DNA from: Escherichia phage ph0011
Reading direction: 5' to 3' (one strand)
DNA length: 64,000 nucleotides
Sequence record: OP557969.1
The translations under genes were made by a program, and so were the position numbers. Positions 31,099 through 32,419 of the stretch are shown here, piece by piece; position 1 is the first letter of the stretch; each line of letters opens with the position of its first letter. The notes below the pieces were generated by a model. The model ran no database searches and was not told where the DNA came from. It saw nothing but the letters and a program-made list of their open reading frames with translations.

Positions 31099-31485
31099 AT
31101 GGAGAAAATAAGTAATATGATAATTCTACAAGTGATATGGATAGATTTAATTTTACTATTCATCAGTTCTGGGTGTACTAAATTTGCTATTATGTTATAT
31201 TGCATCTCGATGGTAATGCTTGGATTTATGGTTCTTTTGAATAAAGAAATTATTTCATGCTTAAAAAGTAATGATCGTGTATTTTTTGAAAATCTCATTT
31301 CAATATCGAATGTTTATCCTATGGGGAAAATAACATACGTAAATATTATAATGTCCACTATAATACATAGTATTATATGTATAACACTTTTAGATATGCC
31401 TTCACTTGTCTTAGGAATTGTGATATTATCAATATACCGTATAAAAAATGAAAAAGATTTAGAGGAACTTTTATGTCAAAAATGA
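31099..31485 (+). CDS. Hypothetical multi-pass membrane protein
   Basis: Hydrophobic segments; ATG at 31099 or at 31117 (GGAG 12 nt upstream); the upstream part of track ORF 30991 is unlikely to be coding. Confidence 0.45.
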
Positions 31486-31994
31486 TTCTATGCACGGATG
31501 AAAATTATGGTATTGGATGTGGTAATTCAATTCCATGGCACAGCAAAGCTGATTTTGAACATTTCAAAGAAGAAACGATTGGTCGTGTTGTTATAATGGG
31601 TTATAACACATGGAAATCTCTTCCAAAAAAACCACTACCTAAACGTTTGAATATTGTCTTGATTTCCCGTGAGTGTGATGATATTGAGAAATATTCAGAA
31701 GATAATAATGTAATGTTCTTACCCGAACGTTGTTTACCTGAATTACTACAATTAAACCCTGAAAGCGTCGTTATCGGTGGTGCTAAGATTTACAAAGCTG
31801 CACTTCCTTATGTACAAGAAGTTATTCACAGTACTGTAAAAGGTACATACCAATGTGATACATTTGTTCGATTTAAAGATGATAAACGTGTAAAACTATC
31901 ACGAGTTGAGTGTAAAACTCTTTCTGATGGCACTTTGGTTGATTACTATGAAATTGTTCATGTTTATGATGAATGGGTGGATGCATATCAATGA
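31473..31994 (+). CDS. frd: Dihydrofolate reductase
   Basis: [11 protein letters not shown]...[27 protein letters not shown] blocks typical of DHFR. Confidence 0.8.
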
Positions 31995-32419
31995 AAATAG
32001 ATTTATATACTGATGGTTCATGTCTTGGTAATCCTGGACCAGGTGGAGTGGGGATTGTTATTGTCGTTGATAACGAAGTACAGGACAAACTTTCATTTGG
32101 TGATATAATGACTACTAACAACAAAATGGAGTTACAGGCAACTATTGCTGGTATACAATATGTTAAGGATATATATTGTGAACCAGATATTACCATTTAT
32201 ACCGATTCTAACTACGTTGTGCGTGGTATGAATGAATGGATGGCTGGCTGGAAAAAGAAAAACTGGAATAACGTAAAGAACGTTGAATTGTGGCAAATTT
32301 TGGATAGTATCAGTTCAGGTTGTAAATTTGAATGGGTTAAGGCCCATGCGGATAATGTATATAATAACCTTGCTGATGAATTGGCCCGTACTGCTGCAAC
32401 TGAAATGAAGAAGCAGTAA
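31991..32419 (+). CDS. Ribonuclease HI
   Basis: [17 protein letters not shown] ... IYTDSNY ... WVKAHAD; ATGA overlap with the frd stop. Confidence 0.75.

Follow-up and report, generated by a model that had tools for sequence, protein, structure and literature searches.

The genes for dihydrofolate reductase (frd) and RNase HI (rnh) of Escherichia phage ph0011 meet in an ATGA overlap, in which the start codon of rnh is superimposed on the stop codon of frd, and the translation of the two genes is most likely linked by termination-reinitiation coupling with assistance from a Shine-Dalgarno sequence. The junction is a textbook member of the -4/-1 class of gene overlaps; it belongs to the most frequent kind of gene junction in bacteria and their viruses, is ordinary, contains nothing novel, and is already annotated in deposited Asteriusvirus genomes. 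The -4/-1 overlaps reflect the general compactness of a genome that is 96% coding, and nothing that is specific to dihydrofolate reductase (DHFR) or RNase HI. The analysis covers a stretch of 64,000 nucleotides from record OP557969.1, referred to here as the window.

A total of 46 phage records match positions 30900-33900, the best of which are the Asteriusvirus phages UB, phAPEC6, 121Q, and PBECO4 at 86% identity. Across 25 kb, UE-S1 matches best, with 89.9% nucleotide identity, and the window as compared with the Asteriusvirus jumbo coliphages 121Q, PBECO4, and UE-S1 is ~86-90% identical over 3-25 kb. The proteins of 121Q genes 4-91 have homologues in collinear order along the window, most of them with 85-99% protein identity, and from this collinearity and high identity the window reads as part of the region for replication and nucleotide metabolism in an Asteriusvirus-like phage. 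The closest deposited phages share only 84-90% nucleotide identity with it and, since this is below 95%, the source phage is probably a species distinct from the deposited Asteriusvirus. The window has a G+C content of 33.6%, has a coding share of 96%, and carries 85 of its 88 genes on the + strand. The gene map was drawn with a simple gene caller based on codon usage and Shine-Dalgarno sequences, and corrected by projection of the 121Q annotation, and junctions were counted in the 64-kb window and in the first 67 kb of 121Q as annotated in RefSeq. Toward the end of the window, a homologue of gp91, the DNA cytosine methyltransferase of 121Q, matches it over the first 78 residues only (63301-63534), and the remaining ~470 nt (to 64000) match neither the rest of this protein nor gp92.

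The frd-rnh locus begins with the gene for a small membrane protein, the homologue of 121Q gp41, which is followed by frd, rnh, and the gene for a Dda-like SF1 helicase (Table 1). Alignment with homologues from nine phages places the start of the membrane-protein gene at ATG 31117, and its TGA stop (31483-31485) falls within the first codons of frd. The two genes overlap by 13 nt with the frd start at 31473, and form an ATGA with the second Met codon at 31482. The first Met is kept in 10 of 11 relatives, is the sole usable start in JNE01, and is preceded at a distance of 6 nt by the Shine-Dalgarno sequence GAGGA (-6.0 kcal/mol). The membrane-protein gene (31117-31485) and its 121Q homologue share just 62% identity, the neighbors being 86-97% identical, and the TTG start of 121Q gp41 reads TTA in the window. 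The gene is fast-evolving, with its position and its overlap with frd conserved across genera.

The product of frd matches Pfam DHFR_1 (1.4e-31) and DHFR structures in the PDB (3.6e-20), and shares 89% identity with 121Q gp42. The product of rnh is 86% identical to the RNase H of 121Q (gp43), and its alignment to E. coli RNase HI structures (6e-33) pairs residue 2 with their residue 4. The initial annotation had described an ATGA overlap between frd and the RNase HI gene at 31991-31994; the sequence and the reading frames agree with the overlap, as the DHFR_1, RNase_H, and PDB matches do with the two gene names. Both genes are real and co-directional, and the TGA and the start codon share two bases, as in other -4 NTGA pairs. 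An antisense ORF of 107 aa that runs across the junction (31873..32196) was rejected as a gene, the same frame holding three stops in 121Q and UB.

A mechanical list of ORFs begins the rnh frame upstream of 31991, at the in-frame ATG 31973. Because this codon lacks a Shine-Dalgarno sequence (+1.3 kcal/mol, compared with -5.8 kcal/mol at 31991) and reads ATT in 121Q and UB, the true start of rnh is ATG 31991 and not the start of the longest ORF. The N-termini of homologues and the alignment to E. coli RNase HI also support this assignment. The Shine-Dalgarno-like GGGTGGA within frd is positioned 9 nt before the rnh ATG, and the energy of its duplex with the 16S rRNA 3' tail (-5.8 kcal/mol) can be set against a mean of -1.4 kcal/mol for random positions.

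Table 1. Coordinates of the frd-rnh locus and of the stop/start overlaps along the window
Feature	Position	Strand	Evidence or remark
TAATG, RecA-like / UvsY-like gene	5612..5616	+	-1 spacing
ATGA, gp14/gp15 homologues	12065..12068	+	-4 in 121Q too
ATGA, gp22/gp23 homologues	17478..17481	+	gene map, 121Q comparison
TGATG	18869-18873	+	-1 spacing
ATGA, gp25/gp26 homologues	19086..19089	+	gene map, 121Q comparison
TGATG, gp26 homologue / inserted 582-codon ORF	19758..19762	+	1-nt overlap
Small membrane-protein gene (121Q gp41 homologue)	31117..31485	+	tblastn, 62% identity over 110 aa
frd, dihydrofolate reductase, 173 codons, TGA stop 31992-31994	31473..31994	+	DHFR_1, PDB
Shine-Dalgarno-like GGGTGGA in last frd codons (Trp-Val-Asp)	31975..31981	+	16S rRNA 3' tail duplex
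ATGA, rnh ATG 31991-31993 over frd TGA 31992-31994	31991..31994	+	sequence; annotated likewise in 121Q, UB, EJP2
rnh, RNase HI, 142 codons, TAA stop 32417-32419	31991..32419	+	Pfam RNase_H 7.6e-37
Dda-like SF1 helicase gene, 31 nt past rnh, own Shine-Dalgarno	32451..33791	+
TAATG	37972-37976	+	-1 spacing
First intergenic terminator-like hairpin downstream of frd-rnh	38769..38789	+
TAATG	47604-47608	+	-1 spacing
ATGA, gp62/gp63 homologues	48895..48898	+	TAATG in 121Q
ATGA, gp63/gp64 homologues	49572..49575	+	start ambiguous, alternative ATG 49587
ATGA, gp68/gp69 homologues	54707..54710	+	gene map, 121Q comparison
Run of four ATGA (57780, 57944, 58363, 58695), five small genes, gp75-gp79 homologues	57780..58698	+
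TGATG, split gene	60232-60236	+	-1 spacing
ATGA, gp86/gp87 homologues	61730..61733	+	gene map, 121Q comparison

The ATGA tetramer alone is uninformative, as 757 copies are present on the + strand of the window. Among the 81 same-strand junctions, a spacing of -4 is found 12 times, in every case as ATGA, and a spacing of -1 is found six times, as three TAATG and three TGATG. Between -10 and +10, a further 16 junctions are spread over the 19 remaining spacings, an average of 0.84, and the excess over this level corresponds to a Poisson P of 1.2e-10 for -4 and 2.4e-4 for -1. Two soft junctions are included in the count, namely 49572, with its alternative start, and 60234, within a gene split by a 1-nt deletion. 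The -4/-1 overlaps make up ~22% of the same-strand junctions in the window, and the independently annotated 67 kb of 121Q show the same pattern, with 14 junctions at -4 and seven at -1 among 94. TGA is a minority stop, used by 28 of 88 genes, and 15 of these 28 stops lie within -4/-1 overlaps; + strand genes outside such overlaps end in TAA (51), TGA (12), or TAG (3). The counting and classification of overlaps that had been proposed with the initial annotation hence return, for the 64-kb window, a non-random excess at both -4 and -1 (12 and 6 of 81).

The pattern had also been said to recur across the window, and this is correct for 57780-57783 and 57944-57947, which bound a 55-codon ORF with 68% identity to 121Q gp76. 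It is not correct for 19757-19760, which reads CTGA; the real junction there is the TGATG at 19758-19762, in which position 19760 is both the last base of the stop (TGA 19758-19760) and the first of the start (ATG 19760-19762). Three of the four junctions in the 57780-58698 run are also -4 in 121Q, where gp75/76 is +1. Overall, nine of the 12 -4 junctions are common to the window and 121Q, and ~88% identity alone would predict ~7 (0.88^4 x 12, an estimate). Runs of tight junctions are not notable in the window, with six adjacent pairs found against an estimated ~4 expected (80 x (18/81)^2). At the gp63/gp64 junction, the annotators of 121Q chose the start at 49587, 15 nt downstream, in a sequence that is near-identical, with one mismatch just before the ATGA.

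The junction at 60234 lies in the homologue of gp83 (59945-60482 region), a gene that 121Q has in intact form. Here a single nucleotide is deleted near 60227, which leaves two ORFs, 60091..60234 and 60234..60482, joined by TGATG, and the -1 junction stems from this deletion; the split gene may be a pseudogene or a pair linked by re-initiation, or the split may be a sequencing error. The adjoining stretch that is annotated as gp82 in 121Q is frame-disrupted in the window and holds a conserved terminator-like hairpin (60045-60063) and, because of these two features, gp82 may not be a gene.

Two insertions relative to 121Q were also observed. The 582-codon ORF (19760..21508; DUF7487 at 5e-23, with a weak match to REase_MTES_1575) sits as an insertion between the homologues of gp26 and gp27 (19751-21480), taking the place of the final codons of gp26 and overlapping gp27 by 25 nt. 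It is absent from 121Q and most relatives and is covered by UE-S1, and a perfect extended sigma-70 promoter (19536-19564) is found ~200 nt upstream. It is probably a free-standing mobile nuclease gene plugged into the host operon. The UvsW-like helicase gene (6960..9539) encodes 859 aa, compared with 494 aa in 121Q. A 365-aa insertion (7401-8495) lies exactly in the Walker A motif, such that GAGK/T in 121Q becomes GAGK-[AQPL...VTHN]-T in the window, and it carries a LAGLIDADG homing-endonuclease domain (PF14528, 5e-11). With Ala as the first residue and His-Asn as the last, followed by Thr, the insertion looks like an intein.

Co-transcription of frd and rnh is implied by their arrangement, because a downstream start codon that sits inside the upstream stop codon would place both genes on the same mRNA. 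Intergenic terminator-like hairpins follow 12 genes on the + strand, at 4445, 6084, 27954, 29598, 38769, 40835, 42297, 46316, 48246, 50376, 55270, and 60045. The consensus scan of the window places none of them at a tight junction, and none is found on the + strand within 29624-38769. The units defined in this way come from consensus scans only, in which the three larger stretches scanned gave 9-13 hairpins compared with 4-8 in shuffled sequences. Most of the predicted + strand units span ~1.5-8 kb, and one terminator-free stretch extends over ~22 kb (6105-27954). The view that the overlaps belong to long polycistronic units is reasonable in part, but such length is not uniform, as hairpins cut the + strand into the shorter units. 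The predicted unit that contains frd and rnh encompasses 11 genes (gp41-gp51 homologues) over ~7.7 kb, and is bounded by a divergent gap (30968-31116) and the hairpin at 38769-38789.

Within this unit are two near-consensus sigma-70 promoters, at 34463 and 34659, and weak sigma-70-like matches are present in the interiors of frd and rnh. The + strand of the window holds four perfect matches to TTGACA-17/18-TATAAT (19536-19564, 34659-34687, 50417-50445, and 52841-52870), three in larger intergenic gaps and one inside a gene, and these are likely to be early promoters for the host RNA polymerase. Counts of sigma-70-like matches are no higher than in shuffled sequences in four of the five stretches scanned; in 44001-64000 they are modestly above (133 versus 110.6 +/- 10.4). 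Of all these matches, the four that score 12/12 alone merit attention.

The starts at -4 junctions have a mean Shine-Dalgarno energy of -5.2 kcal/mol, compared with -5.4 kcal/mol for spaced genes and -1.4 kcal/mol for random positions, over which they are significantly stronger (Mann-Whitney 8e-7). Local folding across all 18 -4/-1 junctions is weaker than in random coding sequence (-5.4 versus -8.0 kcal/mol, P = 0.002), and at the 18 tight starts it is indistinguishable from that at starts with spacers of >12 nt. Overlapped starts are ordinary accessible initiation sites. Because their Shine-Dalgarno sequences are strong and their initiation regions weakly structured, they could also initiate independently.

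The junction between frd and rnh has both the -4 spacing and the Shine-Dalgarno sequence in the 3' end of the upstream gene that are associated with termination-reinitiation. A ribosome ending at the frd UGA would be released one base beyond the rnh AUG, and Shine-Dalgarno pairing would hold the 30S (or 70S) particle in place to allow re-initiation on rnh. Free 30S subunits may use the identical Shine-Dalgarno sequence for de novo initiation and, because both routes are possible, RNase HI synthesis would be tied to, and not wholly dependent on, the synthesis of DHFR. The two routes are inseparable from sequence alone. DHFR and RNase HI are not known to belong to a common complex, and so no stoichiometric rationale exists for coupling them. 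The literature searched contained no expression data for the source phage or any Asteriusvirus, which counts against the coupling reading.

The alternative that best withstands the evidence is that the overlap is a neutral by-product of compaction, and that translation of rnh is essentially independent, Shine-Dalgarno-directed, and without meaningful coupling. We regard this as unlikely, though it deserves serious consideration. An ATGA arises easily, because the start codon already gives three of the four bases, but a ribosome that terminates 1 nt from a Shine-Dalgarno-preceded AUG is physically poised to re-initiate. The overlapped starts equal those of non-overlapping genes in Shine-Dalgarno strength and local accessibility, as independent initiation would have it, yet all but one of the tested E. 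coli pairs with such geometry were strictly coupled (PMC6728339).

The relatives bear on both sides of this question. The junction between frd and the next gene was compared in eleven other phages from at least four named genera. It is ATGA (-4) in 121Q, UB, and EJP2, TGATG (-1) in Serratia BF, TAATG (-1) in CBB, TAAATG (0) in GAP32, an 8-nt overlap (-8) in XaC1 and fHe-Yen9-04, and a spacer of +9 in JNE01 and of +14 in Munch; RaK2 also has an ATGA (-4), with a Mom-like gene in place of rnh. This drift in form favors neutral compaction, as do gp62/63 and gp75/76 of 121Q, which are TAATG and +1 where the window has ATGA. However, the distance between frd and the next gene lies between -8 and +14 nt in every one of the 11 relatives, and never extends beyond the upper of these values. 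A downstream-start Shine-Dalgarno sequence of -5 kcal/mol or better, at any spacing, is present in nine of the 11 relatives as well as in the window, and in JNE01 and Munch, where the genes are apart, rnh has its own strong Shine-Dalgarno sequence. What is conserved is the tight spacing together with the Shine-Dalgarno sequence; the ATGA form itself drifts and is not kept between genera. Neighboring junctions also vary in spacing. That between the gp41 homologue and frd is -4 in GAP32, CBB, BF, and fHe-Yen9-04 and -13 in the window, JNE01, and EJP2, and that between rnh and dda is ATGA in GAP32, CBB, BF, fHe-Yen9-04, and Munch and +28 to +31 in the window and 121Q.

In Klebsiella phage RaK2 (segment 2022-2606), the C-terminal tail of DHFR and the ATGA are kept and are then followed by the Mom-like DNA-modification gene. 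Nucleotide homology with the window ends within ~3 nt past the ATGA, and both downstream products start with Met-Lys-Ile; the alignment points to a gene swap with its breakpoint at the start/stop overlap. A search of IMG/VR with the RNase HI protein matched only 121Q and three distant phages (42-46% identity). In the two distant phages with listed ORFs, no adjacent upstream ORF was DHFR-like as judged by eye.

Coupling through RNA unfolding, in which a hairpin would lock the rnh initiation region until it is opened by ribosomes translating frd, is very improbable here. It counts as one of two accepted models for coupled translation (PMC12548453), but the fold of 31931-32050 gives no sign of a masking structure, being no more stable than that of shuffled sequences (-24.7 versus -24.1 +/- 3.1 kcal/mol, z = -0.19), and the 18 -4/-1 junctions are, as described above, less structured than random coding sequence and the same as non-overlapping starts. 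It is scarcely credible that there is no true overlap, with rnh starting at another codon or with frd and rnh fused through frameshifting, for although an in-frame ATG lies upstream at 31973, it has the deficiencies already given, the next in-frame Met downstream is residue 40, beyond the catalytic Asp of the DGS motif, a slippery heptamer before the stop is absent, and the genes are 9 nt (JNE01) and 14 nt (Munch) apart. Termination-reinitiation with Shine-Dalgarno help is thus retained as the preferred reading.

The predicted frd-rnh unit also contains a complete homologue of initiation factor IF3 (34732..35235; IF3_N 4e-17 and IF3_C 2e-13), which is already annotated in 121Q. The gene lies directly behind the 12/12 sigma-70 promoter at 34659-34687, and is followed by a gene whose 121Q homologue carries the annotation ClpS-like. 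IF3 functions in subunit dissociation and start-codon selection. On account of this role and of the co-occurrence of the gene with the overlaps, it can be imagined that the phage IF3 retunes post-termination ribosomes at many ATGA/TAATG junctions, and could, for example, favor 30S retention and re-initiation on phage over host mRNAs; we consider the idea a long shot.

The genome in the window obeys the universal -4/-1 junction rule, and the importance of this lies mainly in the quality of annotation. The overlaps fix the start of rnh at 31991 instead of 31973, and support the 55-codon ORF 57780..57947 as a real gene. For phage engineering, deletion or truncation of frd may reduce the expression of RNase HI, and the insertion of cassettes at tight junctions should retain the last ~20 nt of the upstream gene, where the Shine-Dalgarno sequence is found.

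The classical coupled pairs of E. coli, trpE-trpD and trpB-trpA, are UGAUG overlaps, and phage T4 also has compact gene junctions. Like these, the frd-rnh pair has a stop/start overlap in one operon, with the downstream initiation region located inside the upstream coding sequence. In the trp and T4 cases, coupling has been proven genetically and biochemically, and the products are mostly subunits or pathway partners. The frd-rnh pair differs from them, as it does from the -4/-1 class in general, in being known from its sequence anatomy alone, and its products differ from those of that class in not being subunits of one complex.

The -4/-1 overlap class, made up of unidirectional gene pairs of bacteria and archaea that are coupled by termination-reinitiation, is well described (Huber et al. 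2019 PMC6728339; Huber et al. 2023 PMC10666635; reviewed by Brown and Wade 2025 PMC12548453), and has the same ATGA geometry as the frd-rnh junction. Across 1,695 prokaryotic species, -4 and -1 are by far the commonest spacings of unidirectional genes (PMC10666635), and the second peak at -1 and the location of the Shine-Dalgarno sequence inside the 3' end of the upstream gene are common to the class and the window. The frd-rnh pair, like the class, is co-directional, and the scan shows no terminator-like hairpin between its genes. Among overlapping pairs in E. coli and Haloferax volcanii, 13 of 14 were strictly coupled, with a contribution of the Shine-Dalgarno sequence that varied by gene (PMC6728339), and the efficiency of coupling drops steeply with distance and is abolished at a spacing of ~20 nt (PMC10666635). 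Co-directional overlap is found in ~15% of gene pairs in most prokaryotic groups (PMC6728339), and in 37% of gene pairs in the window. Spacings from -8 to +6 are likewise somewhat more frequent in the window (38% of pairs) and 121Q (40%) than in E. coli (24%) or H. volcanii (30%). These high shares of overlap and tight spacing fit the phage, because its genome is 96% coding.

The closest counterpart is the same frd and rnh pair in 121Q (genes 42/43, NC_025447), which is also present in UB, PBECO4, phAPEC6, and other Asteriusvirus. The 121Q-type locus resembles that of the window in its order of membrane protein, frd, rnh, and dda, in its ATGA, and in its GGGTGGA. It differs in that RefSeq starts frd of 121Q at the second Met, which makes the gp41/frd boundary a further ATGA junction.
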